This document shows, piece by piece, positions 35,201 to 59,800 of a stretch of 64,000 nucleotides of DNA. A program made the position numbers and the translations under genes. Position 1 is the stretch's first letter, and every line of letters starts with the position of its first letter. The DNA comes from Planctomycetota bacterium (lineage in GTDB: Bacteria; Planctomycetota; J058; J103): assembly GCA_026004615.1 (NCBI GenBank), contig BPJM01000001.1:763482-827481 (forward strand), read 5' to 3'. The notes under the pieces are model-generated. The model worked only from the letters and a program-made list of their open reading frames with translations, was not told where the DNA came from and searched no databases.

Positions 35201-36852
35201 CTCTCCCCTCCGGGCAGAGAGTCGGACACCTTCTGGCTCCCTCTCCCCTCCGGGCAGAGGGCCGGACACCTTCTGGCTCCCTCTCCTCTCCGGGGAGAGG
35301 GTCGGACACCTTCTGGCTCCCTCTCCCCTCCGGGGAGAGGGGTCGGACACGTTCTGGCTCCCTCTCCTCTCCGGGGAGAGGGTCGGACACCTTCTGGCTC
35401 CCTCGCCCCTCCGCGCAGAGGATCGGACACCTTCTGGCTCCCTCTCCCCTCCGGGGAGAGGGTCGGGGTGAGGGGGCGGGGCGTACTGGCTCCGCTCTGC
35501 GAGTCCCCCCTCACCCTAGCCCTCTCCCCCGCTTGCGGGGGAGAGGGGATCCAGAGGGGAGCGCCCTTTTTTTCTCCCTCGCCCCTCCGGGCAGAGGGTC
35601 GGACGCCTTCTGACTCCCTCGCCCCTCCGGGCAGAGGATCGGACGCCTTCTGGCTCCCTCGCCCCTCCGGGCAGAGGGCCGGACACCTTCTGGCTCCCTC
35701 TCCCCCTCCGGGGAGAGGGTCGGGGTGAGGGGGCAGGGCATACTGGCTCCGCTCTGCGAATCCCCCTCACCCTAGCCCTCTCCCCCGCTTGCGGGGGAGA
35801 GGGGATCCAGAGGGGAGCGCCCTTTTTTTCTCTCTCGCCCCTCCGGGCAGACGGCCGGACACCTTCTGGCTCCCTCTCCCCTCCGGGGAGAGGGTCGGGG
35901 TGAGGGGACAGGGCGTACTGGCTCCGCTCTGCGAGTCCCCCTCACCCTAGCCCTCTCCCCCGCTTGCGGGGGAGAGGGGATCCAGAGGGGAGCGCCCTTT
36001 TTTTCTCTCTCGCCCCTCCGGGCAGAGGGTCGGACGCCTTCTGACTCCCTCGCCCCTCCGGGCAGAGGATCGGACGCCTTCTGGCTCCCTCGCCCCTCCG
36101 GGCAGAGGGCCGGACACCTTCTGGCTCCCTCTCCCCTCCGGGGAGAGGGTCGGGGTGAGGGGGCAGGGCGTACTGGCTCCGCTCTGCGAGTCCCCCTCAC
36201 CCTAGCCCTCTCCCCCGCTTGCGGGGGAGAGGGGATCCAGAGGGGAGCGCCCTTTTTTTCTCTCTCGCCCCTCCGGGCAGAGGATCGGACGCCTTCTGGC
36301 TCCCTCGCCCCTCCGGGCAGAGGATCGGACGCCTTCTGGCTCCCTCGCCCCTCCGGGCAGAGGGCCGGACACCTTCTGGCTCCCTCTCCCCTCCGGGGAG
36401 AGGGTCGGGGTGAGGGGGCAGGGCATACTGGCTCCGCTCTGCGAGTCCCCCTCACCCTAGCCCTCTCCCCCGCTTGCGGGGGAGAGGGGATCCAGAGGGG
36501 AGCGCCCTTTTTCTCCCTCGCCCCTCCGGGCAGAGGGTCGGACGCCTTCTGGCTCCCTCGCCCCTCCGGGCAGAGGATCGGACGCCTTCTGGCTCCCTCT
36601 CCCCTCCGGGGAGAGGGTCGGGGTGAGGGGGCGGGGGGGCGTACTGGCTCCGCTCTGCGAGTCCCCCTCACCCTAGCCCTCTCCCCCGCTTGCGGGGGAG
36701 AGGGGATCCAGAGGGGAGCGCCCTTTTTCTCCCTCGCCCCTCCGGGCAGAGGGTCGGACACCTTCTGACTCCCTCTCCCCTCCGGGCAGAGGGCCCGGAC
36801 ACCTTCTGGCTCCCTCTCCCCTCCGGGGAGAGGGTCGGGGTGAGGGGGCGGG
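35201..36852. repeat. repeat array A: modular nested-palindrome array (six 28-nt perfect palindromes, 40-bp hairpin units, T5-7 runs, inverted 12-mers)
   Basis: The 28-mer ccctctcccccgcttgcgggggagaggg occurs at 35520, 35776, 35951, 36206, 36471 and 36677. ggggtgaggg(g/a)(g/a) occurs 7 times, each followed after about 29 nt by ccccctcaccctag. The 40-bp unit ctc(t/g)cccctccggg(c/g)agagg..cggac.ccttctg.ctcc occurs in runs of 6, 3, 1, 3, 3, 2 and 2 copies. Confidence 0.95.
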
Positions 36853-36926
36853 GCCGCCGCTGGAATACCCCGCTCGTGCTCGCGGATACTGCATCGACGA
36901 CGGACGCAGGCCGGGGGCGCGAGGCG

Positions 36927-39661: not shown

Positions 39662-40815
39662 CGAGGGGGCAATGCGCGCTGCGCCTGCCCTTCCCGCACC
39701 CCCTCACCCCAACCCTCTCCCCCGCGAGCGGGGGAGAGGGTGTCCGGGCCTCGCGCGGCGGCGCTCGCTTCTCCCTCTCCCCTGCGAAGATTCTTCCCTC
39801 CCTCTCCCCACCGGGGATTCTTCCCTCCCTCTCCCCTGCGGCGATTTTCTTCTCCCTCTCCCCACCGGGGAGAGGGCCGGGGTGAGGGGGCAGGGCGCGC
39901 TGCGCCTGCCCTTCCCGCACCCCCTCACCCCAACCCTCTCCCCCGCGAGCGGGGGAGAGGGTGTCCGGGCCTCGCGAGGCGGCGCTCGCTTCTCCCTCTC
40001 CCCCGCGAGCGGGGCAGAGGGTGTCCGGGCCTCGCGCGGCGGCGCTCGCTTCTCCCTCTCCCCTGCGAAGATTCTTCCCTCCCTCTCCCCACCGGGGATT
40101 CTCCTCTGCCTCTCCCCTGCGGGGATTCTCCCCTCCCTCTCCCCACCGGGGAGAGGGCCGGGGTGAGGGGGCAGGGCGCGCCGCGCCTGCCCTTCCCGCA
40201 CCCCCTCACCCCAACCCTCTCCCCCGCGAGCGGGGGAGAGGGTGTCCGGGCCTCGCGAGGCGGCGCTCGCTTCTCCCTCTCCCCTGCGGGGATTCTTCCC
40301 TCCCTCTCCCCACCGGGGATTCTCCTCTGCCTCTCCCCTGCGGGGATTTTCTTCTCCCTCTCCCCACCGGGGAGAGGGCCGGGGTGAGGGGGCAATGCGC
40401 GCTGCGCCTGCCCTTCCCGCACCCCCTCACCCCAACCCTCTCCCCCGCGAGCGGGGGAGAGGGTGTCCGGGCCTCGCGCGGCGGCGCTCGCTTCTCCCTC
40501 TGCCCTGCGGGGATTTTCTTCTCCCTCTCCCCACCGGGGAGAGGGCCGGGGTGAGGGGGCAGGGCGCGCTGCGCCTGCTCTTCCCACGCCCCCTCACCCC
40601 AACCCTCTCCCCCGCGAGCGGGGGAGAGGGTGTCCGGGCCTCGCGCGGCGGCGCTCGCTTCTCCCTCTGCCCTGCGGGGATTCTCCCCTTCCTCTCCCCT
40701 GCGAAGATTCTTCCCTTCCTCTCCCCACCTGGGATTCTCCTCTCCCTCTCCCCTGCGGGGATTCTCTTCTCCCTCTCCCCACCGGGGAGAGGGCCGGGGT
40801 GAGGGGGCAGGGCGG
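39662..40815. repeat. repeat array B: same palindrome family, subfamily with centre GA and 29-30-bp sub-repeats
   Basis: ccctctcccccgcgagcgggggagaggg occurs at 39713, 39934, 40215, 40436 and 40613, with a one-mismatch copy at 39994. gagggccggggtgaggggg plus a 29-nt linker (ca(g/a)(g/t)gcgcgctgcgcctgcccttcccgca) plus ccccctcaccccaaccctc recurs 5 times. Sub-repeats such as ctctcccctgcggggattcttccctcc and ctctccccaccggggattctcctctgc also occur. Confidence 0.95.
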
Positions 40816-47601: not shown

Positions 47602-49737
47602 TTAGCCGCCGCGGCGCGGGGGCAGCGCCGCGCTCAGCCCGCCGGCGGCAGGCAGATACGCCCCCAGGGTGTAGTCGCGCACCATCCGCTCGGCGTTGAA
47701 GCGCCAGCCCAGCGCCTGCATGGCGTGCTTGACGCGCGCGATCCAGCGCCGCGGCAGCCCCTGGGCGTCGCGCTCGTAGAACAGCGGCGCCACCTCCTCT
47801 TCGAGCACGCGGAAGGCGTCCTCGCGGTCGCGCGCATCCTGGAGCGCGGGGTCGCGGTGGGTGTGGCCGCGGCCGATCGCGAAGCCGGCGCGCCCGTCGT
47901 AGGCCTCGGCCCACCAGCCGTCGGGGATCGAGATGTTGAGCCCGCCGTTGAGCACCACCTTCTGGCCCGAGGTGCCGCACGCCTCCAGCGGCCGCCGCGG
48001 GTTGTTGAGCCAGGCGTCCACGCCCTGCACCAGCTGCCGCCCGACGTGCATGTTGTGGTTCTCGATGAAGACGATCCGGCGGCTGAAACGCGGATCGCGA
48101 CTGACGGCGTCGATGCGCTGCACGAACGCCTTGCCGCCCTCGTCGTGGGGATGCGCGCGGCCGGCGAAGATAAACTGCACCGGGCGCTCGGGATGGTTGA
48201 CCAGCCGGTCGAGCCGCTCCAGGTCATCCAGGAGCAGGGTGGCGCGCTTGTAGGTGGCGAACCGGCGCGCGAATCCGATCGTGAGCACCCCTTCGTCGAG
48301 CGGCACGGGTTCCAGGGGGCGGCCGAGCCGCGCGCGGAAGGCCTGGACGTGGCGGCGCACCCACGCGAGCAGGCGGGCCTTGAGCACCAGGTGCAGCTCC
48401 CACAGCTCGCCGTCCTCGATGGCGGCGATGCCCTGCCAGGCCTGCGGCTCGGCGCGGCCGCGGCGCCACTCGGGCCCGAGCCGCAGCTCCAGGAGCTCGT
48501 GCATCTCGGGCGCCATCCAGCTCTCCACGTGGACCCCGTTGGTGATGTGGCCGATCGGCACCTCCTCTTCCGGGCGCTCCGGCCAGAGCACGCGCCACAT
48601 GCGGCGGGTAACCTCGGCGTGCAGCGCCGAGACGGCGTTGCGGTGGCGGGCGAGCCGCAGCGCCAGCACCGTCGGCAGAAACGCGGCGCCGTGCTCCTCC
48701 GGCCGCACGCGGCCCAGCCCCAGCAGCTCCTCCAGGGGCATGCCCAGTCCGGCGGCGAGCGGTGCCAGGTGGGCGGCTGCCAGCTCGGCGGGAAAATGGT
48801 CGTGGCCGGCCGGCACCGGGGTATGGGTGGTGAACACCGCCCGGCGGCCGACCTCCGCCAGCGCCTCGCGGCCGTCCAGTCCTTCGCGCTCGCGCAGCTG
48901 GCGCGCCGCCTCCAGCAGCGCGAACGCGGTGTGGCCCTCGTTGAGGTGGATCACGCTCGGCTCGATGCCGGCGGCCTGGAGCATCCGCATCCCGCCGACG
49001 CCGAGCAGCAGCTCCTGCTGGATGCGCACCCGCATGTCGCCCCAGTACAGCCGCGCCGTCAGCTCGCGGGCCGGCTCGGGGTTGTCCGGGTCCTGCGCCG
49101 TCAGCAACAGCAGGCGCGAGCGGCCGACCATGGCCTGCCGCGCGCGCAGCACCACGGTGGACTCGGGCAGCTCCACCCGCACCCGCAGCGGTGTGCCGTC
49201 CGGGCTCGTCAGCTCGTGCAGCGGCAGCTCGTCCAGCGGCACCCTCTCGACCGGGTCCTGCTGCCAGCCCGAGGCGTCCAGCCGCTGGTGCACGTAGCCC
49301 TGGTGGTAGATGAGGCCAAGGCCGACGATCGGCACCCCGAGATCGGAGGCCGCCTTGAGGTGATCCCCGGCCAGGACCCCCAGGCCGCCGGAATAGATCG
49401 GCAGCGACTCGTGGATGCCGAACTCGAAGCAGAAGTACGCGACCGGCGCGGCATTGAGCGGCCCGCCGTGCAGCGCCCCCCAGGCGCCGTTGCTCTCCAG
49501 GTAGTGGTTGAGCTCGCGCACCGCGCGGTCGATGCGCGCCAGCATCTCCAGGTCGTGCACCCGCTCGGTGAGCACCTCGGGGTCGATGCGGCGGAGCAGC
49601 GCCACGGGGTTGCGGTGGCAGGCGCGGTAGAGCTTGGCGTCGAGATCGCGGAAGATGAACCGAACGTCGCGGTGCCAGGACCACCAGAGGTTATTCGCCA
49701 GCGCCCACAGTTTGGCGATCACGTCGTTGTCGGCCAT
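47602..49737 (-). CDS. glgP: alpha-glucan (glycogen/maltodextrin) phosphorylase, GT35
   Basis: ORF 47602..49767 trimmed to ATG 49737 (MADNDVIAKLW). It has YFCFEFGIHESLPIYSGGLGVLAGDHLKAASDLGVP and the PLP-Lys block EACGTSGQKVVLNGG. Confidence 0.9.
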   Translation of the reverse strand: MADNDVIAKLWALANNLWWSWHRDVRFIFRDLDAKLYRACHRNPVALLRRIDPEVLTERVHDLEMLARIDRAVRELNHYLESNGAWGALHGGPLNAAPVAYFCFEFGIHESLPIYSGGLGVLAGDHLKAASDLGVPIVGLGLIYHQGYVHQRLDASGWQQDPVERVPLDELPLHELTSPDGTPLRVRVELPESTVVLRARQAMVGRSRLLLLTAQDPDNPEPARELTARLYWGDMRVRIQQELLLGVGGMRMLQAAGIEPSVIHLNEGHTAFALLEAARQLREREGLDGREALAEVGRRAVFTTHTPVPAGHDHFPAELAAAHLAPLAAGLGMPLEELLGLGRVRPEEHGAAFLPTVLALRLARHRNAVSALHAEVTRRMWRVLWPERPEEEVPIGHITNGVHVESWMAPEMHELLELRLGPEWRRGRAEPQAWQGIAAIEDGELWELHLVLKARLLAWVRRHVQAFRARLGRPLEPVPLDEGVLTIGFARRFATYKRATLLLDDLERLDRLVNHPERPVQFIFAGRAHPHDEGGKAFVQRIDAVSRDPRFSRRIVFIENHNMHVGRQLVQGVDAWLNNPRRPLEACGTSGQKVVLNGGLNISIPDGWWAEAYDGRAGFAIGRGHTHRDPALQDARDREDAFRVLEEEVAPLFYERDAQGLPRRWIARVKHAMQALGWRFNAERMVRDYTLGAYLPAAGGLSAALPPRRGG

Positions 49738-49882
49738 GGTGTGCGCCTCAGCGGGCAGCGGCGGCACCGCGCACGAGCGGGTGGCCGCGCGCCGCTGCCA
49801 CCGATCCGTCGGTCGCGGCCAGCATAGCCGCGGGCCCCGTCAGCCCCAAACCCCCCCGCGCGCGCCGCGCGCCCCTGCTCGC

Positions 49883-52703
49883 TCAGTGCTCGCCGGCCGC
49901 CTCGAGCCGCTCCAGCCCCCGCTGCGCCTCGGCAAGCCCGGGCGCGAGCTCCAGCGCCCGGCGGTAGGCCTGCGCGGCGAACTGCCGCCACTGCGCGGCG
50001 CTCTGGAGCGCGCTCTGGACGGCGGGCTGCTCGTTCAGACGCGCGAGCAAGGCCACGTACCGCTCGCCCTGCTGGATCCCGGGGGCGAGCTGTTCGAGCC
50101 AGCGCTCGCGCAGGGCGGCGGCCTGTTCGGCGTACTGCCGGGCCCGCTGCTCGCGCTCGCCTCCGAGCTGCGCGTAGGCGCGTGCGGCGTCCTCCTTGCG
50201 GCCCTGCTGCAGCCGCACGCGCGCCAGCTTCTCCAGCACCCGCAGCTGGCCGCCCTCGAAGTCGCGCCAGTTGCCGCGCAGCGCCAGCTCGTACTGCTCG
50301 GCGGCCTGTTCCCACTGCTGGCGGCGCACCGCGATGTCGCCGAGGGTCTCGTGCGGCGGCGCGAAGTGCACGATCCCGCGGTCGGGCAGCGTGTAGCGCT
50401 CGACCGCGCGCCCGGCGATCTGTTCCGCCAGCTCGAGCATGCCGAAGTCCAGCGCCGCCTCGGCGGCGTCGCGCAGGAAGTAGGCGTTGTTGGGGTCGAT
50501 CTCGAGCGCTTTCTGGTAGGCGGCGATCGTGGCCTCGGGACTGGCGCCCGGCGGGCTGAGCAGCGCGAGCTGGTGCAGGGTGCGGGCGTAGTTGGCGTGG
50601 TTGTAGGCGTTGACCGGCACCAGCGCGAGCGAGCGCGCGTGCGCCTGGAGCGCCCGCTCCAGCAGCGCCCGCCGCTCCGCGGGTGCACTGGCGGTCATCC
50701 CCGCCTGCAGGTAGGCGGTGCCGAGCTGCACCCAGTATAGCTCCTTGGTCGGATCGAGCGCGACCGCGCGCTCGAGCGCCGGGATCGCCTCCCGGTACCG
50801 GCCGGCGTTGTTGAGCGTGCGGCCCTCGCGGCAGGCGGCGTTGGCGCGAAAGGGGATCACGACCGCGAACCAGATCGCCACCCCGAGCAGCGGCCAGACC
50901 AGGGCCTGGGCGGCGCGCGCCCGCCACAGCCGGTCCGGGCGCACCCAGGGGCGCGGCAGGTTGGGGGCGGTGGCGGTGTCGTCGTCGGCCGGCTGCGGCG
51001 GGGGGCCGGCCCCGGCGGGCGGCGGCGCGGTGAGGGCGCGATACGCCGCCAGCGCGAGCGCGAGCATGGCGGCGAGCAGGAGCAGCTTCGCCGGCCCGCC
51101 ACGCCCGGCGGGCGCGGCGAGCATGTACACCATGAAGCCGAGCCACGCCGCCAGCACCAGCACCGCCCCGAGCCCCAGCGGCGGCAGCAGTGCCACCGGC
51201 CCGGCGCCGCCGGTGGCGCCGGCGGGGCGCGGGCGGCCGCGGGCGGAGCCCCCGGCGCCGGGCGCTGCCGCCGGCGCTGGGGCTGCTGGCGCCGCCGCCT
51301 CCTCCTCGGGCTCCGGGGCCTCGTAGCCGGCGAGCGCGGCCAGGATCGCCGCATACGAGACCATGAGCGTGCCGCAGCCGGCGACGGTGAAGCTGAAGAA
51401 GTCCTGCGCGTAGAATCCCACCAGCCCGGCACCGATCGCGACGACCAGCGCCCGGGCGTCGGGGCTGGGGGCGCGGCGCAGCGCGCGGCGGAACGCCAGC
51501 CCCAGCGCGGCGGTGAGCAGCCCCAGCGCCAGGAGGCCGAGCGTGCCCTGGGTGGCCGCGATGTGCAGCAGTTCGTTGTGGGCCTTGGTCGGGGTGCCGT
51601 TCCACTCCACGTGCCAGTACTCGGGGGTGCGCCGCGGCATGAAGGCGAGCTGGAAGCAGTCGAGCCCCACCCCGGCGACGGGGGCATCGCGGTACATCTC
51701 GAGTGCGGCGCGCCAGATGTGCCAGCGCGACTCCTTGCCCGGCTCGGCGAACAGCCGCTCCACCCGTTCCTGCACCCCGCGCAGGATGTTGCGGCCCTCG
51801 GGGACCAAGGTCAGAAACGCCACCAGGGTGGCCACCAGGCCGATCGCCACCACCGCGCCCAGCACCCGAGTGCCCGTGCGCTCGCGCACCCCGCCACCAG
51901 CCGAGCAGCAGCGCGGCGAAGGTCAGGGCGAGCGCTCCCCAGGCACCGCGCGAGACGCTCGCCACGACGACCACCCAGCCGACCACCACCACCGCGCCGA
52001 GCCCGGCAGCCACTCCAGGCCGGCGGTGGCGCCAGGCGCGGACCGCCAGGTAGGCGAGCGCCGGGAATGCCATGACCAGGAAGGCGCTCAGGAAGTTGGG
52101 GTGGCCCATGGTGGCGAACACCCGCAAAAAGCCCCCGAAGTGCGCGGTGCGGCCCCAGTCGATGGGATCGATCCCGAGCAGCTGGATGACCGCGTAGGTG
52201 CTGGCCCCGGTGGCACCGAGCGCGCTCGCCCACAACAGCCCCCGCGCTTGGCGCACGTCGCGCACCAGCTCGCGGGTCGCGAAGAACAGCACCGCGTAGG
52301 CGAGCATGGTGAGCAGGCCGGCGAAGCTCTCGTGGGCACCGAACAGCGAGGTGGCGCGGTTGATGGTCCAGATGGTGGAGGCGAGCGAGGAGCCGAGGAA
52401 GGCGAGCACGCCCCAGGCGACCGGGTCGCGCGCGAGCGAGGTGACCAGCCGCCGCCAGCGGATGGGCTCGCCGGCGGGACGGGCGAGTGCGCGCCAGAGC
52501 AGGCTCGCACCGCCGAGTGCGAGCAGCGCGAGCGCCACCAGGCGCAACAGCATGACCTTGTTGTACTCGAAGACCTCGACCGTCAGTGCCGAGAACACCA
52601 GCGGCGACAGCGCCAGGTGCAGCACCAGCAGTGCGTAGCCCGCGCGGCGCGTCAGCGTGACGTGCCGGCGAATCGGTGCCTCGGTGGGCCTGGGCGGGGG
52701 CAT
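49883..52703 (-). pseudogene. O-antigen-ligase-like (Wzy_C) polytopic membrane protein fused to a C-terminal TPR domain; one frameshift as assembled
   Basis: The N-terminal membrane part is in ORF 49719..52703 (LVLHLALSPLVFS..., MGHPNFLSAFLVMAF...). After about 51892 the true frame is ORF 49883..51889. That frame reads RWHIWRAALEMYRDAPVAGVGLDCF...KAHNELLHIAATQG, a Wzy_C-like block. More TM helices follow, then TPRs (GRYREAIPALERAVALDP, YARTLHQL, AIAAYQKALEIDPNNAYF). Confidence 0.7.
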
Positions 52704-52963
52704 GGCGTCGCGACCCTGCTCGTGCTCTCGGAACCGTGCGCTACTGCGACGAAGCAGCCATGTATATCAGACCGGCACCTGGCCGGCCACCCGCTGGTGT
52801 CCTTGCCTGCAGGGCGCGCGCCTTTTGCCTGCCGGGTCGTCCCGGCGGCGAGCAGACGCGCCTGCCGCCGGCCTCCCCGCAGAGCGGTCGGCCCTTGCCG
52901 GCCCTCTCCCCTCCAAGGAGAGGGCCGGGGTAAGGGGGACGGGTGCGGGCGGTGCGGGGGTCT

Positions 52964-52996
52964 GCTGCGGCTGCGGCTGCGGCTGCGGCTGCGGCT
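52964..52996. repeat. hexanucleotide microsatellite (GCTGCG) x 5.5 inside the array C linker
   Basis: gctgcg is repeated head-to-tail from 52964 to 52996. The homologous linkers at 54190-54205 and 54700-54725 carry only 1-3 copies. Confidence 0.9.
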
Positions 52997-53040
52997 CTAG
53001 GCCCCCTCACCCTGACCCTCTCCCCCGCAAGCGGGGGAGA

Positions 53041-53456
53041 GGGAATCCGGAGAGGCGCGGGGAGGGGTGGATCAGAGGCGGAGGCGGCGGAAAGGGAATC
53101 CGGAGAGGCGCGGGGAGGGTGGATCAGAGGCGGAGGCGGGGGAGAGGGAATCCGGAGAGGCGCGGGGAGGGTGGATCAGAGGCGGAGGCGGCGGAAAGGG
53201 AATCCGGAGAGGCGCGGGGAGGGTGGATCAGAGGCGGAGGCGGCGGAAAGGGAATCCGGAGAGGCGCGGGGAGGGTGGATCAGAGGCGGTGGCGGCGGAA
53301 AGGGAATCCGGAGAGGCGCGGGGAGGGTGGATCAGAGGCGGTGGCGGCGGAAAGGGAATCCGGAGAGGCGCGGGGAGGGTGGATCAGAGGCGTGGCGGCG
53401 GAAAGGGAATCCGGAGAGGCGCGGGGAGGGTGGATCAGAGGCGGAGGCGGGGGAGA
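53041..53456. repeat. eight tandem copies of a 52-bp unit (gggaatccggagaggcgcggggagggtggatcagaggcggaggcggcggaaa)
   Basis: gggaatc starts at 53041, 53094, 53146, 53198, 53250, 53302, 53354 and 53405, a period of 51-53 bp. The period is not a multiple of 3. Confidence 0.9.
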
Positions 53457-53533
53457 GGGGATCAGCGGCGGAAGCGGGGGAGAGGGGATCCGGAGGGGCG
53501 ATCGCCCTCTTGCTCCCCTCTCCCCGGAGGGGA

Positions 53534-54052
53534 GAGGGCCGGGGTGAGGGGGCAATGCGAGGGGCGGCGCGTGGTGTTGCTCCGCGCCCCCTGGCGGCTC
53601 CCCGTGGTGTGTCCGCCGTCCTGGCCGACAGGGGGCAAGGGTATCCTCCTCTCTGTTCCCCGGGGGTGAGCGAGCCGTCGGGAGTGAGGGAGCGACGAGA
53701 GGACCATGCACGAGCGGGCGCGGGAGCTGAGAAAGGAGCAGACCGAGGCGGAGGCGGTGCTGTGGCGGCGGCTGCGCCGGCGACAGCTCGAGGGGTGGAA
53801 GTTTCGCCGGCAGCACCCGGTCGGACCCTACGTGGTCGACTTCGTCTGCCTGGCGCGCCACCTCGTGGTGGAAGTGGACGGTGGCCAGCACATAGAACGG
53901 GCGGAGTTCGACCGGCGCCGAAGTCGCTTCTTGCAGAGCCGCGGTCTTCGGGTTCTCCGCTTCTGGAACAACGAGGTGCTGGGCCAGCTGGAGGCTGTTC
54001 TGGAGACGATTCGGCAGGCGCTGCTGCAACCGGCCCCCTCACCCTAACCCTC
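53534..54052 (+). mobile_element. putative full-length unit of the palindrome family: 19-nt inverted arms bracketing the DUF559 gene (hypothesis)
   Basis: The left arm gagggccggggtgaggggg (53534-53552) and right arm ccccctcaccctaaccctc (54034-54052) are 16/19 complementary. They enclose 481 nt containing the DUF559 ORF. In 15 other copies the same arms enclose only 29-63 nt. Confidence 0.3.
53706..54047 (+). CDS. DUF559 endonuclease-domain protein (Vsr/PD-(D/E)xK-like)
   Basis: 113-aa ORF reading ARELRKEQTEAEAVLWRRLRRRQLEGWKFRRQHPVGPYVVDFVCLARHLVVEVDGGQH...RRRSRFLQSRGLRVLRFWNNEV, the typical DUF559 pattern. The last codons and the TAA (54045-54047) lie inside the repeat arm ccccctcacccTAAccctc. 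Confidence 0.85.
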   Translation: MHERARELRKEQTEAEAVLWRRLRRRQLEGWKFRRQHPVGPYVVDFVCLARHLVVEVDGGQHIERAEFDRRRSRFLQSRGLRVLRFWNNEVLGQLEAVLETIRQALLQPAPSP

Positions 54053-54845
54053 TCCCCCGCAAGCGGGGGAGGAGGGAATCCGGAGGGGCGCGGGGGAGAG
54101 GGAATCCGGAGGGCGGTCGCCCTCTTGCCCCCTCTCCCCTCCGGGGAGAGGGCCGGGGTGAGGGGGCAGGTGCGGGCGGTGCGCCGGTAGCCGCTGCGGC
54201 TCCTCCTCCGGCCCCCTCACCCTAACCCTCTCCCCCGCAAGCGGGGGAGAGGGGATCAGAGGCGCAAGCGGGGGAGAGGGAATCACAGGCGGAGGCGGGG
54301 GAGAGGGGATCAGCGGCGGAAGCGGGGAGAGGGAATCAGCGGCGGAGGCGGGGGAGAGCGGATCCGGAGGGGCGGTCGCCCTCTTGCCCCCTCTCCCCGG
54401 GGAGAGGGCCGGGGTGAGGGGGCGGTGCGGGCGGTGCGCGGAGCCGCTGCGGCTCCTCCTCCGGCCCCCTCACCCTAACCCTCTCCCCCGCAAGCGGGGG
54501 AGAGGGGATCAGAGGCGCAAGCGGGGGAGAGGGAATCCAGGCGAGAGGCGGGGGGCAGGGAATCAGCGGCGGAAGGCGGGGGAGAGGGAGATCAGCGGAC
54601 GGAGGCGCGGGGGAGAGGGGATCCGGAGGGGCGGTCGCCCTCTTGCTCCCTCTCCCCGGAGGGGAGAGGGCCGGGGTGAGGGGGCGGGTGCGGGCGGTGC
54701 GGCGGGACTGCTGCGGCTGCGGCTGCCGCTCTGTGCCCCCTCACCCTGACCCTCTCCCCCGCAAGCGGGGGAGAGGGGATCACAGGCGCAAGCGGGGGAG
54801 AGGGGATCAGAGGCGCAAGCGGGGGAGAGGGGATCGGATCGGAGC
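54034..54845. repeat. repeat array D: same palindrome family (centre AA), four units with 24-30-bp half-palindrome sub-repeats
   Basis: ccctctcccccgcaagcggggga(g)gaggg occurs at 54048 (variant), 54226, 54479 and 54750. Sub-repeats such as gatcagaggcgcaagcgggggagaggg fill the units. The units end in ccctctcccc..ggggagagggccggggtgaggggg at 54157, 54410 and 54674, followed by 45-51-nt linkers. Confidence 0.95.
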
Positions 54846-54863: not shown

Positions 54864-54974
54864 CTTCGCTTCCCCGCTCGCTCGTTAGGGCGTCACGCCC
54901 CGCAGATCACGCTCGTCTAGCAGCGGGTTGATCGCGCCCTTCGCTCCCCCGCTCGCTCGCTAGGGCGTCACGCC
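54864..54974. repeat. degenerate about 75-bp tandem duplication of the 3' end of the giant ORF (two 36-nt copies, 34/36 identical)
   Basis: cttcgcttccccgctcgctcgttagggcgtcacgcc (54864-54899) matches cttcgctcccccgctcgctcgctagggcgtcacgcc (54939-54974). On the reverse strand both read GVTP plus a stop (TAA and TAG). Confidence 0.8.
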
Positions 54975-56852
54975 TGCCTGGGTGATCCGCCGGTCGAAGG
55001 TGATCCCGGGCCCGAACACCAGCTCGAAGGTCTGGTCCAGCGGCACCGGCAGGAACCGCGCGCGCAGGATCAGCGCGTAGCGTCCGGCCGGCATGTCGAA
55101 CCGGCCGTCGCCGTCCACCGAGTTGAGCAGCAGCGAGCCGTTGGGTCCGCGCTCGAGCACCAGCGGCAGCTGCTGGGGGTTGCCGACCTGGTCGAAGCGG
55201 ATCAGCGCGGTCTCGTCCGGATCGAGGAACAGATCCTCGGCCGGCAGGCTCGCCCCGCCCGGGCGCACCGCGAGCGAGAACCGCCCCGAGGCCGGCACGA
55301 CGAAGAAGAACTCGTTCTCCAGGCCGTCGAAGACGAACTCGGTGGCGAGCTCGCTCTCCTGGTCGATGGGGACTCCTTCCGGACCGAGGTTGAGCACATC
55401 GCCGAGCGCGTTCGGCCGCACCGGCGCGTCGTCGCCCGCCTCGAACGGGTTGATGTTCACCGCGACGGTGAAGGTCCCGCCCGCGGTGGCGCTGCGGGCC
55501 GTCACCACCAGGAAGAAGACCCGGTTGGTGCGGCTGCCCCGCAGCTGGGCGTACAGGCTCGGTCCCGCCTCGCCGAAAAAGTCGTCCCGCACGCGGATCG
55601 TCCGGCCGGCCGGCGAGAGCAGCTCGACGATCGGATCGAACGAGCTGGACTGCACGGTGATGATCGCCTGGCTGATTGCGGGCTCCACCCCGGTGTCCGG
55701 GATCTCGAACGCCAGCAGCCGCTGGCCGCCCGCCTCGAGCGTGGTCGTGGTGGCGGGGCGCTGGGTCGTGATATCGAGCAGCAGCGGGTCGCCGGCGCGG
55801 ACCCGCGGCAGGTTGGCGCCGTTGTCGAAGATCACGTTGGTGGTGTACGCCATGGTGGGCGCCACCGCGACGCGCTGGTTGTTCGCCTGGGCGGCGGCGG
55901 TCTCGACCGGGGTCTCCAGCGGATCGGTGGCCTCGAACACCTTCAGCAGTTCCAGGCGCAGCTCGAAGCGGCCGGCGATGTCCGCGGTGAACGTCACGCT
56001 GCGGCTGAGCGGGCTCTCCACCGCCGCCGGCGGGACGGCGAACGTGCCCGTGCCGAGCACCACCGCGCTGCTGCCGCTGCCGCGCACGATCCGGTAGCGG
56101 GCGGTGAGCGTGGTGGTGACCGGCTGGTTGAGATTGCTCAGCACCACCGAGCCGACCACGGGCTGGCCGACCAGGACCGCGGTCGGGGCCTCGAAGCGGG
56201 TGATGACGAGGTCGAGATCCGCCGGCGGAGGCGGGGCGGCGGCGAACAGCTGCACGCGCCGCGCAGCCACCGCGGTGTTGTTCTTGTCGTCGAGCTCGCG
56301 CAGCGGCCGCAGGCCGTCGTTGACCCGCGCGATCAGCGTGTAGACCCCCTCGCTCAGCGTCGCGCCCTCCGCCACCGGCACCACCGGCCCGGCGTCGCCC
56401 CCCTCGCTCACCACGCGCTGCGCCGCTCCGATCTCCAGCTGGGGGGTGAACTCGAGCGTGCGGACGCGGAAGGCGGTGCTGTCGATCGAACGCGTGCGCG
56501 AGAGGTACCAGGAGATCTGGAACGGCTGCGCGGTGAAGTCATCCCCCTGGTTGATCACGTTGAGCCGGAGCCGGCCCTCATCGCCCAGGAAGACCACCCG
56601 CACATCCGAGGTCCCGGTGATCGTCTCCAGCATGGCGACGGCTGGGCCGTCGGCCGAGGAGGCGACGAGGTCCGGCTGCGTCAGGTCGGGGCCGCCGCCT
56701 CCGCCGCCGCCCGCGATCGCCAGCAGCAGCGCCGCCCACACCCCGGCCGCGCACCCGCTGCTCATCACGAGCAGGCCGCACAACACCGCCACCCCCAGCC
56801 AGCGGCCGGGGCCGCCGGTCGTGCTGCGCCTGTGCGCCCCGTTACGCGCCAT
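54960..56852 (-). CDS. C-terminal module / possible separate lipoprotein: CARDB-like and pre-peptidase-C-terminal-like beta-sandwich domains
   Basis: An in-frame ATG at 56852 is preceded by GGAGGAG. MARNGAHRRSTTGGPGRWLGVAVLCGLLVMSSGC is a signal peptide plus lipobox. CARDB-like blocks follow (LNVINQGDDFTAQPFQISWYLS...GVYTLIARVNDGLRPLRELDDKNN, then a second copy). No stop separates it from the upstream module, so it may be part of one 3000+ aa protein. Confidence 0.55.
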   Translation of the reverse strand: MARNGAHRRSTTGGPGRWLGVAVLCGLLVMSSGCAAGVWAALLLAIAGGGGGGGPDLTQPDLVASSADGPAVAMLETITGTSDVRVVFLGDEGRLRLNVINQGDDFTAQPFQISWYLSRTRSIDSTAFRVRTLEFTPQLEIGAAQRVVSEGGDAGPVVPVAEGATLSEGVYTLIARVNDGLRPLRELDDKNNTAVAARRVQLFAAAPPPPADLDLVITRFEAPTAVLVGQPVVGSVVLSNLNQPVTTTLTARYRIVRGSGSSAVVLGTGTFAVPPAAVESPLSRSVTFTADIAGRFELRLELLKVFEATDPLETPVETAAAQANNQRVAVAPTMAYTTNVIFDNGANLPRVRAGDPLLLDITTQRPATTTTLEAGGQRLLAFEIPDTGVEPAISQAIITVQSSSFDPIVELLSPAGRTIRVRDDFFGEAGPSLYAQLRGSRTNRVFFLVVTARSATAGGTFTVAVNINPFEAGDDAPVRPNALGDVLNLGPEGVPIDQESELATEFVFDGLENEFFFVVPASGRFSLAVRPGGASLPAEDLFLDPDETALIRFDQVGNPQQLPLVLERGPNGSLLLNSVDGDGRFDMPAGRYALILRARFLPVPLDQTFELVFGPGITFDRRITQAGVTP

Positions 56853-59800
56853 CTCCTCCACGCTCCCGCCACCGTGTTGCCTGCGGTCCCAGGCGGCCTT
56901 GCCGCTGCTCGCCGGGCTTGCTCCCGCAGCCCACGCGCGCACCGAGCGCAGCCCTCGCCGGTGTGCCCCCAGCCGCAGGGCGAGCAGCACCAGCGCGAGC
57001 AGCCCCAGCGGCAGCAGCCCGCCGAGCGGCTGCCCGCGCCCGCTCGCCGCACCCGCCACGAGCGAGCAGCCGCCGCTCGAGCCGCCGCCCTTGTTGCCGC
57101 TGGCGGCGCCGCCGCTGCCCGGGGTGTCGGTGACGAAGAACGCGGCGCTCGCCGGCAGGCTGCGCAGCACGAGCCCGTCGCTGGTGGTCACGAACAGCTC
57201 GAACTCGTACTCCCCGGCCGCCAGCGGCACGAGTCTCCGCTCGGAGCTGGTCTCCTCGCGGCCGGCGAACACGCTCGGCAGGCCCCGGGTCTGCACGAAG
57301 CGGAAGCGCAGCTGGCGCGGCGGGCTGTTGGGGTCGCTCGAGTTGCGGCCGCTCAGCCGCACCTCGGTGCCGACGGTGGTGTCGGCCACGGGCTCGATCA
57401 CCGCCACCGGCAGCCGGTCGGTCGCGCTCTCGGCGGCGAACGTCACCCGCGCCCGGTCCCAGTTGCGGGTCGCGGTGTCGATCACCGTGACCTCGTAGGT
57501 GTAGACCCCCGGCAGCTGCGGCACGACCGCGGTCGAATCGCCGTCCGGATCGGCCACAGCGGTGAGCGGTCCGCCCACCTGGCGCCAGAGGAACCGGAGC
57601 CCGGTGCTGCCGGAGCCGGTGCTGTCGGTCGAGCCGCTGGCGTCGAGGGTCACCGGGGTGCCGACGTTCACCGTCGCGGCGGCCAGCGGCGCGATGACCG
57701 CCCTGGGAGCGCGCGGGTTGGCCGAGCCGGTCGAGACCACCGGCAGGTGCAGCTCGAACGGCCGCCCGGCGACCTCGCCCCGGTTGCGCCCCGTCAGCCG
57801 GAAGCTGTAGGTGCCCGCCATGGGCGGCACGAAGCTAGCGGTATCGCCGCTCGGGTCGATCGTGACTGTCGGACCGCCCGTCTGCTCCCAGTCGTAGCCG
57901 GCCACGCGCGGCACGCCCTGGCTCTGCGAGCCGTCGAGCGTAAGCCGCCGCCAGCGCTCGCCCGATTCGAGCACGCTGTCGCCGTCGGTATCGAGCGCCC
58001 CCACCGTGGGCTCGAACCGCGCGAACGGCGGGATCTCGGGCGGGCTCGCCTGGTCGTCCACCACCACCACCTGCACCCGCGCCGGCGGCGAGGTGTGGGT
58101 GCCATCGCTCACCCGCAGCTCGAAGGTGAGCACGCCGGCGTTGCCCGGGGCGATGAAGCTCGGGCGCGCCGCGGTCGGATCGTCGAGCACCACCGGCTCG
58201 CCGGCGAGCTGGCTCCAGGCGAAGCTCAGAGCATCGCCGTCCTCGTCGGTGCTCAGCCGCCCATCCAGCGTCACCGTGGAGTTGACGCGCACGACCTGGT
58301 CCAGACCCGCATCGGCGGCCGGCACGTGGTCGGCTGGCGCCTGCACCACGATCGTCACCGAGGCGGTGTCGCTCTGGGCGCCGGCGGCCGAGCCGTCGCG
58401 CACCTCCAGGTCGATCCGGTACACGCCGGCGGGCACGCCGGCGGCGATCCCGACCGTGGGCGCCGGGGAGGTGGACGTCACCCCGCCGTCGAGGGTGATC
58501 CCGGCCGGCGTACCGGAAGGCCGCCGCCACTCGAAGCTCAGGCTCCCCTGCAGATGCAGGCCATTCGGATCGCTCGAGCGCGAGCCGTCGAGCACGAAGC
58601 TCGTGCCGGGCGCGAGCACGATCGGCCCCGGATCGACCTCGGCCACCGGCGGCAGATCGACGATCGTCAGCGTGAAGGTGCGCTGCAGCTTGTTGCCGGG
58701 CAGGACCGCCAGGCCGAGCGGGACCTCGGACAGCGTCACCTCGAGCCGGAAGGTGTAGTTGCCCGGAGTCAGCGCGATCAGGTCGAGTTGTGCGCTCGCC
58801 AGATCCGCTCCCAGCGCCGCCGTCGTGGCTCCTGTGACCTGCTGCTCCACCGGGCGGAGCATCTGCAGCGGGATGGCCGGCGTGGCGAGGTCCGTCGGAT
58901 AGCTGCTCGGGCCGGTGAACGCGCTCACCGCGATCGCACTGACCTTGGAGCGGTCGAGCAGACTCGGTGCGAAGTCCAGCCGCACGAAGCCCGGACGCAC
59001 GGCGTCGACGCGTCCGTCCCCGATCAACGGGTCGGTCTCGCGCACGCGCAGAAGCCCGTTGTTGCCGAGGCTATTGGCGACGTTCACCGCATTCGTGAAG
59101 AAGGCCGGCATGGCGTTGGCGCCTGCTGCGCTTGCGGAGGTGTCCTGCAGCAGATTGCGCGTGAAGTTGTCGGCAAACAGAAGTGTCGGGGTGCGCAGGT
59201 CCCCGGCCAGGCCGTTCAGCTCGATGAACAGCTTGTTGCCGTCGGCGAAGACCACGCCCGTGGAGCCCGCGAGCAGATCCTCGCCATCGGCCGACAGGAC
59301 CACCAGATCGGCGAGCTCGCCGACGCTACCGCCGTCGGTGCCCTCGATCTCGACGCGCTCGGGTCCGAAGCCCAGCGCCCCCGACGCATCGCCGGACTGT
59401 GGCAGGATGCGGACCCGGCGTCCCGCGCCGCGCGACGCAGTGCGGATGACGAAACGCCCCTGCTCGAAATCGGCCGTGCCGAGGCTGCCGAGCGCGAGTC
59501 GCAGCTGGATCAGCACCGTCTCCACGCTCGGCGCCCCCGGCATGGTCGCCGTCACCGTGGCGGGAGTCCCGCCATTGGACACCTCGATGGTGAGCTGCTT
59601 GTTCGCAGCCGCCGCGAGGTTGGGCGTGGTCCCCAGCGGCGCACTCACCGCCACCCCGTGCCCGGCGGCGAAGGCGATGTCCTCGGAGAAGGTCGCCTCG
59701 AGCAGATCGGGTGTGCCGTTGTTGTCCAGGTCGAGCACCCGCACCGACAGCAGCACCGGTGGTGCGCGATCGACGACGGGGGTGAAGCTCCCCGAGAAGC

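Follow-up and report, generated by a model that had tools for sequence, protein, structure and literature searches.

The window analysed here is a stretch of 64,000 nucleotides from a contig of a Planctomycetota bacterium. A short arm recurs in it in inverted pairs, and between the arms of one such pair lies a complete gene for a nuclease of the DUF559 family. This arrangement raises the question of whether the gene and the repeat belong together and, if they do, what kind of element they form and how it could spread.

The cassette and the gene-less pairs in the window

A search of both strands of the window for the arm GAGGGCCGGGGTGAGGGGG, allowing up to 3 mismatches, gave 33 matches (17 left and 16 right), while dinucleotide shuffles gave an expectation of 0.23 +/- 0.47 with a maximum of 2. 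The features that these arms delimit are collected in Table 1. The first-pass annotation of this DNA had described one long pair with an intact ORF between the arms and the stop codon inside the right arm. All of this was seen: the arms at 53534-53552 and 54034-54052 are 16/19 complementary and 481 nt apart, and the last codons of the ORF (P-A-P-S-P) as well as its TAA (54045-54047) fall within the right arm.

Table 1. Positions of the DUF559 cassette, its parts and the arrays of gene-less pairs in the window.
Feature	Position	Strand	Description
Whole cassette, ~560 bp	53516-54076		DUF559 gene between two inverted BoxC/triplex-motif ends
Left end	53516..53552	+	Hairpin CCCTCTCCCC-gga-GGGGAGAGGG, spacer CC, G-rich arm GGGGTGAGGGGG; BoxC/TM-type C-block, G-block, G-block
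Leader, 153 nt, left arm to ATG	53553..53705	+	GAGAGGA ribosome-binding-like stretch ahead of the start codon
DUF559 gene, 113 codons + TAA	53706..54047	+	Predicted product: Vsr-fold PD-(D/E)xK-superfamily nuclease with intact catalytic residues
Right end	54034..54076	+	C-rich arm CCCCCTCACCC, spacer TAA (= stop codon), hairpin CCCTCTCCCCCG-caag-CGGGGGAGGAGGG
Array A	35201..36854	+	Six gene-less pairs, loops 28-31 nt, plus unpaired left end at 36830
Array B	39665..40807	+	Five pairs, four of them complete (29-nt loops) and one with a truncated left arm (39665-39717); left end at 40789 without partner
Array C	52897..53515	+	One gene-less pair (~52897-53043), 63-nt loop with (GCTGCG)5.5
Array D	54130..54776	+	Gene-less pairs at ~54130-54252, 54388-54505 and 54648-54776; loops 45, 42 and 51 nt

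The 19-nt arm is only one part of a longer end, in which a hairpin is followed by the arm; the general form of the left end is CCCTCTCCCC-n3-GGGGAGAGGG-yc-GGGGTGAGGGGG. Except for its spacer, the right end of the cassette is the mirror image of the left end, and apart from the spacer the two are complementary over ~24 nt. The spacers of paired ends are systematically non-complementary, C-A oppositions included. Two strings that had been quoted as shared with the short copies were found again, GGGGGCAATGCG at 53548 and also at 39665 and 40388, and CCGGCCCCCTCACCCTAA at 54030 and also at 54208 and 54461. These strings extend beyond the arms by just 7 nt and 4 nt; the 7 nt that open the leader, caatgcg, also follow left arms of array B. 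No sigma-70-like promoter was detected between 52600 and 55000, and an Rfam scan revealed neither a match nor an intron. An integron attC site was ruled out by inspection, the ends being without R'/R'' core sites (GTTRRRY).

The short pairs had been counted as 15 copies with loops of 29-63 nt. Fourteen of them are complete pairs (six in array A, four in B, one in C and three in D), but the 15th, at 39665-39717, has a truncated left arm, and the loops range from 28 to 63 nt. The left arms at 36830 and 40789 have no partner. A cassette formed by the left arm at 36830 and the right arm at 39699 was considered and rejected; the two belong to neighbouring arrays with ordinary genes between them (according to the ORF translations an ECF sigma-like ORF, a downstream ORF and a cysteine-desulfurase-like ORF).

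The pairs of array A are interleaved with 40-nt hairpin repeats, with tandem periods of ~175-431 nt and a folding z of -6.5, and those of array B are separated by 27-nt C-block repeats (folding z = -7.8). After the single pair of array C a 52-nt G-block repeat runs for 8.3 copies (53031-53463) and leads up to the left end of the cassette. In array D the outer flanks correspond to those of the DUF559 unit, 27-nt tandem G-block repeats lie between the pairs, and each unit folds as three consecutive hairpins (z = -5.7). The 15 short copies do not represent as many independent, dispersed insertions of the MITE type; they lie at three intergenic loci, as tandem duplications whose periods are ~167-281 nt. 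The idea that their short linkers are internally deleted derivatives of the gene cassette received at most marginal support. Aligned locally to the interior of the cassette, the loops scored no better than shuffles, and an end-anchored split alignment gave a marginal signal, with p of 0.005-0.015, in three of seven loops (two from array D, one from array B), the rest being not significant. The p values of the array D loops against the cassette ends were 0.015, 0.005 and 0.35.

The identity of the gene was confirmed by an HMM search. The ORF matched the Pfam profile DUF559 (PF04480) with an E value of 8e-41 and 138.8 bits (cut-off 20.6), residues 3-106 of the protein corresponding to profile positions 5-108 of 109. 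Eight residues (D45, E56, D58, G59, G60, H62, F86 and W87) are invariant in alignments of 22 and of 30 sequences and all occur in the window protein; N88, which it also contains, is invariant in the smaller alignment and at least 90% conserved in the larger one. Both the D...ExDGGxH acidic/His core and the RFWN motif of DUF559 are present. The solved DUF559 structure PDB 3HRL (N. gonorrhoeae NGO0050) matched the protein with an E value of 6e-30. When an AF2 model of the protein (pLDDT 84) was submitted to Foldseek, 3HRL came first, followed by the homing endonuclease I-Bth0305I (3R3P_B; E 2e-4, TM 0.67/0.76) and then by Vsr (1VSR; E 1.4e-2), which suggests a related fold. The scores for the Vsr mismatch endonuclease profile TIGR00632 (19.3 bits) and the YcjD equivalog profile NF007294 (117.4 bits) were below the curated cut-offs of 97.85 and 218 respectively, and a PADLOC scan for defence systems returned only a sub-threshold match.

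The window protein is 100% identical to KatS3mg102_0635 from a Planctomycetota MAG, while the best homologue of the left neighbour gene of the cassette is 50-54% identical. A tblastn search of the 64-kb window found no further DUF559 remnants. The DUF559 gene is rare both on plasmids, where 33 of 72,556 records (for the most part megaplasmids or chromids) have it, and in phages, with 2 records. To our knowledge DUF559 is a large nuclease family that has a solved structure and no assigned role; we also know of no function for either YcjD, the E. coli member of the family, or NGO0050.

The BoxC motif and its association with DUF559 genes

Repeats of the BoxC/PIT/TM type have been catalogued since the 1990s; their copies number from tens to hundreds in E. 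coli, Neisseria, Pseudomonas, Microcystis and many further bacteria. We know of no established function, origin or spreading mechanism for them. Holder et al. (2015, PMC4666352) reported the BoxC/PIT/TMECO intrastrand triplex motif from E. coli and from over 260 further genomes, and Kaplan et al. (2016, PMC5100583) presented it as a G-quadruplex-hairpin-duplex switch. The authors of the triplex study, the most thorough one on these repeats, "never found ... remnants of transposases or integrases" (PMC4666352).

As the criterion for BoxC we used a C-block, a G-block and a second G-block of ~9-12 nt, separated by loops of 1-6 nt, together with closeness to the 37-nt E. coli consensus. The ends in the window have this block structure and sequence, and the E. 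coli BoxC CCCCTCGCCCC-ttt-GGGGAGAGGG-tta-GGGTGAGGGG is nearly identical to them. Judged by sequence, the repeat of the window is the known BoxC/PIT/TMECO triplex motif and not a new family. In E. coli the published pairing rule combines a TTA-type with a CCG-type second loop (PMC4666352). Every left end in the window has YCGG at this position, while the right ends, read as reverse complement, have CTAG, TTGG, TTAG or TCAG (YYRG). The second loops differ between the two ends in 18 of 22 cassettes and in 16 of 16 metagenome pairs. About 60% of the ends contain a G4 pattern, which refers to the sequence pattern only.

The association of gene and motif extends far beyond the window. Hairpin-plus-arm ends in inverted orientation bracket the gene in 64 of 81 loci of the DUF559 subfamily (~79%), which come from many phyla with a GC content of 40-74%, in agreement with the expectation that other DUF559 genes would be flanked by the same arms. 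The left-end architecture was found upstream of DUF559 in 72 of the 81 loci. Each side carries a pyrimidine-rich/purine-rich hairpin, with the G-rich arm after the left hairpin and its complement before the right one; a few loci have a reversed layout, with the hairpins inside and the arms outside. As in the window, most right ends extend over the last codons of the gene, and the stop codon is often provided by the spacer of this end. The GC content of the ends is near 0.72 regardless of that of the host, even in hosts with 40% GC.

Furthermore, the two ends of one locus resemble each other more than they resemble the ends of other loci. This holds for the arm plus spacer (9.0 vs 6.5 of 16) and for the long-range stem (7.4 vs 5.8 of 9), and in both cases none of 2000 permutations reached the observed value. 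The similarity of the TIRs did not co-vary with protein identity (Spearman 0.07; Mantel 124/1000). A reverse census of GGGAGAGGGTTAGGGTGAGGG gave 112 assessable metagenome occurrences, of which 95 were solo, 14 formed short pairs and 3 flanked DUF559, so that ~3% were linked to the gene. No recurrent cargo other than DUF559 was seen between motif pairs in this material, and distant solo ends enclose ordinary genes. The gene-less copies far outnumber the gene-bearing ones, and the comparison with REP/RAYT or autonomous/non-autonomous pairs that had been suggested for the window is therefore apt.

The E. coli protein YcjD (b1289) belongs to the same family and is 50% identical to the window protein. 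The codons for its C-terminus, ...SPSP, form a C-block hairpin, with a full BoxC ~170 nt downstream; unlike in the window, the canonical left end has been lost. E. coli genomes have 23-33 BoxC copies vs one ycjD, and lineages without ycjD still have BoxC copies. At the site between tldD and aaeR a BoxC copy is fixed, with 5419 of 5426 E. coli genomes having it. For this reason the 1-31 places per genome found with a 71-nt BLAST query reflect divergence as much as copy number, and they were left out as evidence of mobility.

Together, these data support the view that DUF559 and the arms belong together. Since the gene-plus-repeat unit recurs across many phyla, the nuclease is the first candidate partner gene for BoxC repeats. 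The literature that we searched on DUF559, COG2852, ycjD and Vsr-like nucleases in combination with MITEs or mobility contained no proposal of a link to BoxC and, in line with the first-pass annotation, no described mobility role for DUF559; the link appears to be new.

Insertion sites and possible modes of spread

Pairs of related copies define the borders of the unit. Between loci L006 and L013 (90% identical) and between L013 and L055 (87%) homology is confined to the region between the outer hairpin edges plus 0-5 nt, and the flanks are unrelated. The copy L008 is 70% identical to these three and comes from a host with 41% GC vs ~60% in the others; again homology stops 0-5 nt outside the hairpins. 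MetG proteins with an internal cassette (826-910 aa) occur in Gallionellaceae, Ferriphaselus, Propionivibrio and Methylocaldum, while the empty allele, in relatives that are 92% identical over the shared part, encodes 704 aa. In-frame cassettes were also found within HsdS, EarP, PriA and an MmeI-like gene, all of them in relatives of the window cassette and not in the window. The Pfam domains of the MetG-DUF559 fusions include no intein domain. The comparison of these loci, in which the insertion polymorphism and the unrelated sites come from taxa other than the source organism, shows at the sequence level that the cassette is a conserved discrete unit that occurs in many phyla and at unrelated sites, some of them in frame within essential genes. 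With regard to the polymorphism of copies and insertions that had been asked for, filled and empty MetG alleles exist between close relatives in other taxa; the tldD-aaeR copy in E. coli is fixed.

No target-site duplication was found above control, and the flanking direct repeats at 57 loci resemble those of a chimeric control; homing or recombination would be expected to give this result, DDE transposition would not. One Gallionella MAG contains two copies (L019 and L045) that are just 67% identical. With this divergence, and with no near-identical copies seen at dispersed sites, nothing points to recent activity.

Our preferred reading, to which we assign a probability of about one half, is that the window contains one intact compact selfish cassette, made up of DUF559 and inverted BoxC ends and situated inside a tandem array, which spreads in a homing-like manner. 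In this scheme the nuclease, probably as a dimer, would recognise the near-palindromic pair of ends or an extruded non-B structure (hairpin, cruciform, triplex or G-quadruplex) and would nick or cut at the recognised ends. Host recombination repair could then use the 35-45-bp ends as homology and copy the gene and/or the motifs into other copies of the motif. Decay of the gene would leave short pairs and solo ends behind, and slippage at the structured ends may have created the tandem arrays of the window. Apart from the association, the matching ends and the discrete borders of the unit, this reading has in its favour the intact catalytic residues, the rank of a homing endonuclease above Vsr among the closest folds, and a Caulobacter protein with a DUF559 domain that damages DNA in vivo (PMC12907096). 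A more tentative generalisation is that the DUF559 proteins are the missing partner enzymes of BoxC/PIT/TM. They would then define a widespread, unrecognised class of selfish elements with a Vsr-fold nuclease of ~110 aa and structured inverted ends, which spread without a transposase or target-site duplication, shed many gene-less ends and sit in frame in essential genes without a splicing element.

Several observations speak against the selfish cassette, namely the independence of TIR and protein similarity, the lack of recent activity, the fixed tldD-aaeR copy of E. coli, the few loci with a reversed layout, and in the window the tandem nature of the gene-less pairs and the marginal resemblance of their loops to the cassette ends. 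Moreover, the DUF559 locus of Xanthomonadaceae is syntenic, which points to vertical inheritance. This synteny and the lack of visible recent duplicates would also suit a RAYT-like caretaker, that is a nuclease retained by the host and inherited mostly vertically, which makes, disperses or maintains the BoxC/TM repeats of its own genome, a role proposed for RAYTs with respect to REPs, while its gene rarely moves. The same can be said of the inverted repeat copies at both sides of the gene, a feature of RAYT genes as well, and of the many repeats per gene in the window, in E. coli and in the metagenomes. We nevertheless regard such a role as unlikely. A gene that rarely moves is difficult to reconcile with a discrete unit whose sites are unrelated between related genomes, with cassettes inside essential genes for which close relatives have empty alleles, and with at least two divergent copies in one MAG; the persistence of BoxC in E. 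coli lineages without ycjD also speaks against a caretaker.

Less likely still is a relation by position alone, in which the BoxC/TM motifs are fragile, recombinogenic landing sites for small transferred genes, and DUF559 is a Vsr-like nuclease of the repair or restriction type that does not act on the motif, for example as the partner of a cytosine methyltransferase like VsrA of Caulobacter. TM loci in E. coli are indeed more rearranged than control sites, a sign of local instability (PMC4666352), and ycjD occupies a site where other lineages have eefRABCD (PMC12817139). A Caulobacter protein with a DUF559 domain has a functional tie to a methyltransferase (PMC12907096). The independence of protein and TIR similarity is a further point in favour of this explanation. 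It does not, however, predict that the motifs have fixed positions relative to the ORF and inverted orientation in ~79% of loci across phyla, that homology stops exactly at the outer hairpin edges, that no other recurrent cargo lies between motif pairs, or that the ends retain their high GC content in AT-richer hosts.

The least probable explanation is a device at the RNA level, in which the inverted ends pair in the transcript around the ORF and regulate how a potentially toxic nuclease mRNA is stabilised, processed or translated, while the gene-less pairs are stabiliser or terminator-like elements; the strong hairpins of the short units (z = -5.7 to -7.8), the ~24 nt of complementarity and the lack of an internal sigma-70-type promoter are compatible with it, but the mismatched spacers, the missing Rfam match, the absence of promoter or terminator activity of TM motifs in earlier work (PMC4666352) and the copies inside MetG and PriA, which need transcription and translation straight through, are not, and the discrete unit at unrelated sites is left unexplained.

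The selfish cassette makes three predictions, namely that the nuclease is active on TM DNA, that the conversion of empty pairs depends on it, and that gene and repeat are co-distributed. The finding links two orphans, the BoxC/PIT/TM repeats and the DUF559 nucleases. It also accounts for the recurrent ...PSP.P.GRG/GEG... peptides in the annotation of DUF559 proteins and of interrupted host proteins. If the reading is correct, the few proteins that propagate short bacterial repeats would be joined by another class of enzyme, and there would be a second case, after the palindromic elements of Rickettsia (RPEs), of palindromic DNA that is tolerated inside proteins.

Comparison with known systems

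The ends of the cassette share with BoxC/TM the order of C-block, short loop, G-block, 3-4-nt loop and G-block, and the occurrence as solo copies and inverted pairs. In the literature this motif is gene-less, always intergenic and without a mobility gene, whereas here it brackets DUF559; relatives of the window cassette carry it in frame within genes, and the window has large tandem arrays with extra block repeats of 27, 40 and 52 nt.

RPEs resemble the related loci in that palindromic repeats are tolerated in frame, in our case in MetG, PriA, EarP, HsdS and the MmeI-like protein. They have no sequence relationship to the cassette and encode no protein, and the in-frame copies were seen only in relatives of the window. 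Pairs of MITEs and autonomous transposons likewise have terminal inverted repeats and comprise many short gene-less copies and few gene-bearing ones. In contrast to them, the cassette has neither a DDE or other transposase nor a target-site duplication, and the short copies of the window are tandem units.

The likeness to REP/RAYT is closer. Both consist of a single small gene between inverted copies of a short structured repeat that is far commoner than the gene, and both show inverted doublets, BIME-like clusters and no target-site duplication. The enzyme in the window is, however, predicted to be a Vsr-type PD-(D/E)xK nuclease and not an HUH Y1 (IS200/IS605-like) transposase. The repeat differs in sequence and structure, and copies of the DUF559 cassette as such occur at unrelated sites and within coding genes.

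The EDxHD (Vsr-like) homing endonucleases, with the prototype I-Bth0305I (PMC3239194; PMC2677866), offer the parallel for the protein. The DUF559 gene differs from them in that it lies in no group I intron or split intein, and no recognisable element splices out its in-frame copies. The window protein has only 113 aa without extra DNA-binding domains, and its gene is flanked by a multi-copy structured repeat instead of a single-copy host gene target. In spite of these differences the two groups appear to share the catalytic fold and a similar acidic/His pattern, and both are without target-site duplication. On the basis of the AF2 model, I-Bth0305I, a homodimer that cuts a pseudopalindromic site beside its own insertion point (PMC3239194), is the nearest functionally characterised structural relative of the window nuclease.

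Arms, arrays and the DUF559 gene in the window

The 19-nt arm GAGGGCCGGGGTGAGGGGG is matched 33 times on both strands of the window (G+C 73.7%) with three or fewer mismatches, compared with 0.23 ± 0.47 matches expected by chance from dinucleotide-preserving shuffles. Pairing of neighbouring left and right arms gave 14 complete short pairs, i.e. facing ends without a gene, with loops of 28-63 nt. The arms at 53534-53552 and 54034-54052, in contrast, are 481 nt apart and enclose a 113-codon ORF (53706-54047), whose terminal codons (P-A-P-S-P) and TAA stop fall within the right arm. The arms, the long pair, the ORF and the recurring strings described in the first-pass annotation were all confirmed, and the two strings that it quoted were found again where it had placed them. 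Each arm is only part of a longer end. The left end reads CCCTCTCCCC-n3-GGGGAGAGGG-yc-GGGGTGAGGGGG and consists of a 10-bp hairpin and then an arm that almost repeats the 3' half of this hairpin; the right end is the mirror image. On folding, the short unit gives three consecutive hairpins (z = -5.7 to -7.8).

The 15 short copies counted earlier are not 15 independent insertions. They are tandem duplications with periods of ~167-281 nt in three intergenic regions, and between them lie single blocks repeated in units of 27, 40 or 52 nt. The blocks amplified between the pairs are the G-block (52/27 nt), the whole hairpin (40 nt) and the C-block (27 nt), and these stretches have a likeness to half-site arrays. 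In array C, the loop of the pair holds a perfect (GCTGCG)5.5 microsatellite (52964-52996), to which GCTGCGGCT runs in the array D loops are related. A single cassette formed by the arms at 36830 (left) and 39699 (right) was rejected, since each is part of its own array and ordinary genes separate the two neighbouring arrays.

The outer flanks are common to the array D units and the DUF559 unit, which therefore form one array with one filled and three empty units. These data are compatible with either deletion of the gene from the empty units or its insertion into the filled one. The idea that the short copies arose by deletion from the gene-bearing unit came out weak. Loops of the gene-less pairs aligned to the cassette interior no better than shuffled loops. 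When the alignment was anchored at the arms and split over both cassette ends, array D contributed two marginal loops (p = 0.015 and 0.005) and array B one (p = 0.015), and the remaining loops were not significant.

The ORF product matches Pfam DUF559 (E = 8e-41), as had been proposed, and keeps all family-invariant residues (D45, E56, D58, G59, G60, H62 and the RFWN motif). It falls below the NCBIfam cut-offs for Vsr and for the YcjD equivalog. In a sequence search it matched PDB 3HRL, a DUF559 protein from N. gonorrhoeae (E = 6e-30). The same entry is the first structural neighbour of its AlphaFold model (pLDDT 84; E = 1e-8); the homing endonuclease I-Bth0305I, through its catalytic domain, comes second (E = 2e-4), ahead of Vsr (E = 1.4e-2). 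As a homodimer, I-Bth0305I cleaves a pseudopalindromic site beside its own insertion point (PMC3239194). VsrA, a DUF559-domain protein of Caulobacter, causes DNA damage in vivo in cells that lack a cytosine methyltransferase (PMC12907096); DNA nuclease activity in cells can therefore be assigned to at least some members of the family.

Elsewhere in the window, a 192-nt tandem repeat (26132-26859; 3.8 copies, 98% identity) lies near repeats of 93 and 114 nt with abundant CTCCAGC/GCC (also at 25388-25843). The region is possibly coding and repetitive, and is unrelated to the cassette. Judged from composition only, the 3002-codon ORF downstream of array D appears to contain repeated Ig-like or adhesin-like segments. 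The translation of the O-antigen-ligase-like gene looks frame-shifted after ~270 aa.

Features of the window and of loci in other genomes (L numbers)
Feature	Position	Strand	Remark
Array A			6 complete short pairs
Array B			4 complete short pairs
Array C			1 complete short pair
Array D			3 complete short pairs
Additional copy	39665-39717		truncated left arm
Unpaired left arms	36830 and 40789		
Tandem single-block repeats	35201-36621, 39771-40788, 53031-53463, 54239-54364, 54492-54623, 54760-54835		
O-antigen-ligase-like gene	49719-52703		on the other side
3002-codon ORF	54960-63968	minus	directly downstream of array D
sapF-ycjD-fabI	L081 4030-4840	minus	E. coli K-12
MetG cassette	L045 1240-3720; also L043, L064, L076		L045: Gallionella MAG, JABEVG010000049
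In-frame copies (MmeI-like, HsdS, EarP, PriA)	L019 1303-4713; L007, L012, L016; L022; L075		
Opposite arrangement	L207 1390-1900; L208 1420-1850; L075		L207, Synechocystis plasmid; L208, Deinococcus plasmid

Identity of the repeat

The DUF559 gene of E. coli, ycjD, adjoins the motif CCCCTCGCCCC-tct-GGGGAGAGGG-tta-GGGTGAGGGG, which is repeated in 5,426/5,426 complete E. coli genomes and also occurs as solo intergenic copies (e.g. tldD/aaeR, ytfQ/ytfR, zntA/tusA). A full-text literature search with the motif sequence identified the repeat. By this sequence match, the window family is an already known element, called BoxC in the 1990s (33 annotated copies in K-12), PIT elements by the Maher laboratory in 2000, and TMECO, a G/C-rich intrastrand triplex motif, by Holder et al. 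in 2015 (PMC4666352). Kaplan et al. (2016, PMC5100583) cast it as a G-quadruplex-hairpin-duplex switch. For TMECO, Holder et al. reported 23 copies in K-12 and occurrence in >260 genomes; promoter or terminator activity was not found, local instability was higher, and traces of transposases or integrases were never encountered (PMC4666352). Neither PMC4666352 nor PMC5100583 mentions DUF559 or ycjD.

In inverted pairs, the TTA-loop type is always partnered with the CCG-loop type (PMC4666352). The window pairs follow this rule: left ends are all YCGG, and right ends, read as reverse complement, are CTAG, TTGG, TTAG or TCAG (in summary YYRG). Within a pair, the two ends nearly always have unlike 3-4-nt spacers (the second loop), with differences in 18/22 cassettes and 16/16 metagenome short pairs; this agrees with the E. 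coli rule from the literature, by which type A always pairs with type B. The arms are therefore complementary at only the 16/19 positions first reported.

G-block, spacer and arm together supply four G-tracts (GGGG-AGA-GGG-CC-GGGG-TGA-GGGGG at 53526-53552). Among 63 loci, a G-quadruplex pattern occurs in 38 left and 39 right ends; the predicted quadruplex would compete with the end hairpin.

At the ycjD locus, the gene terminus is a C-block hairpin, followed by a fragment duplicating a DUF559 3' end (METVLENIRQGLNR...) and a complete BoxC. The upstream side carries another, perfect 16-nt inverted repeat (CACCTCATTCTGACAA...TTGTCAGAATGAGGTG). ycjD takes the site held by the eefRABCD efflux operon in other phylogroups (PMC12817139).

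DUF559 cassettes in other genomes

The window comes from a Planctomycetota MAG (KatS3mg102). Close relatives of the gene next to the window cassette were not found in the genome collections searched. Bracketing by the arms was checked on DUF559 homologues, scanned with one genome per species. This gave 80 loci of 50-63% identity, distributed over Pseudomonadota, Thermodesulfobacteriota, Dehalococcoidia, Nitrospirota, Latescibacterota, Zixibacteria and further groups. A pyrimidine-rich/purine-rich hairpin flanks the gene on either side in 64 of 81 loci, the window included, with a G-rich arm after the left hairpin and its complement before the right one. Most of these DUF559 genes are bracketed by the same kind of ends. 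The right end mostly overlaps the final codons, and its spacer (CTAA, CTGA or CTAG) often provides the stop, as in the window. Ends vary among loci (e.g. GGGAGAGGG-ttag-GGTGAGGG, GGGGGAAGG-ttgg-GATGGGGG, GGGGAGGG-ttgg-GTGGGGATGG) and match better within than between loci (0/2000 permutations reach the observed value). They have ~72% G+C while host G+C spans 40-74%. In a minority of loci, e.g. plasmid copies of Synechocystis and Deinococcus, the order is reversed, so that the hairpins adjoin the gene and the arms lie distally: C-arm and hairpin precede the gene, hairpin and G-arm follow it. In a reverse census of metagenome contigs with the exact 21-mer GGGAGAGGGTTAGGGTGAGGG, 95 of 112 assessable occurrences were solo ends, 14 short pairs and 3 flanked DUF559; recurrent cargo other than DUF559 was not found among them.

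Homology between elements of different MAGs stops 0-5 nt beyond the left hairpin on one side and 0-5 nt beyond the right hairpin on the other, and the flanks are unrelated (L006/L013, 90% identical; L013/L055, 87%; L008 against all three, 70%, with host G+C of 41% vs ~60%). L006 has two tandem DUF559 cassettes (2950-3375 and ~3540 onward), each preceded by the same flank of ~45 nt or longer (...aagactataacttagcgaaaggttttggcttttcc), which also precedes the L055 cassette.

In Gallionellaceae, Ferriphaselus, Propionivibrio, Methylocaldum and others, the whole cassette lies in frame in MetG, after the catalytic core and before the C-terminal tRNA-binding domain, giving products of 826-910 aa. The empty allele has 704 aa in relatives 92% identical over the shared part; one relative (P0141) retains a solo end only, with a second short element elsewhere in MetG. 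In the Gallionella MAG, the left end is translated as PLPSPSGRGAGGEG, followed by DUF559 and the right end as PAPSPLTPLPEGEG. Further in-frame copies reside in HsdS (type I), the EF-P rhamnosyltransferase EarP, the PriA helicase and an MmeI-like type IIL enzyme, whose single ORF carries a full cassette, a short pair and also two solo ends, each in frame.

Mechanism and relation to known systems

The conserved unit of gene plus ends, its discrete boundaries at unrelated sites, the filled and empty alleles, the absence of target-site duplications above a chimeric-flank control and the large surplus of gene-less ends suggest a homing-like cycle as the likeliest mechanism, with a probability of about 0.5. 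The nuclease would recognise the near-palindromic end pair, or a structure extruded by the ends, and break the DNA. Recombination repair with the 35-45-bp ends as homology would then transfer copies of the gene, of the ends, or of both from one motif copy to another. Pairs and solo ends would be left where the gene is lost, and slippage at the structured ends could produce the window arrays.

Several observations temper a claim of mobility. Vertical inheritance is indicated by synteny of the loci in Xanthomonadaceae; two copies within one Gallionella MAG are only 67% identical; one E. coli BoxC copy, that between tldD and aaeR, is fixed in 5419/5426 genomes; plasmids and phages rarely carry the gene; and similarity of the terminal repeats does not track protein identity. 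A RAYT-like caretaker of the repeat is an unlikely alternative to the homing-like cycle, a gene hitch-hiking at fragile sites is somewhat less probable still, and a regulatory stem acting at the RNA level is improbable.

The BoxC/PIT/TMECO repeat and the DUF559 family are each already known. The literature searched contained no report of their physical association, of the discrete cassette or of its in-frame location in essential genes, and the association runs counter to an explicit published negative on mobility genes near these motifs. The unit first noticed in the window is real and points to something larger than was proposed for it. It is similar in kind to REP/RAYT systems and to free-standing homing endonuclease genes, but represents a different combination of enzyme and repeat.
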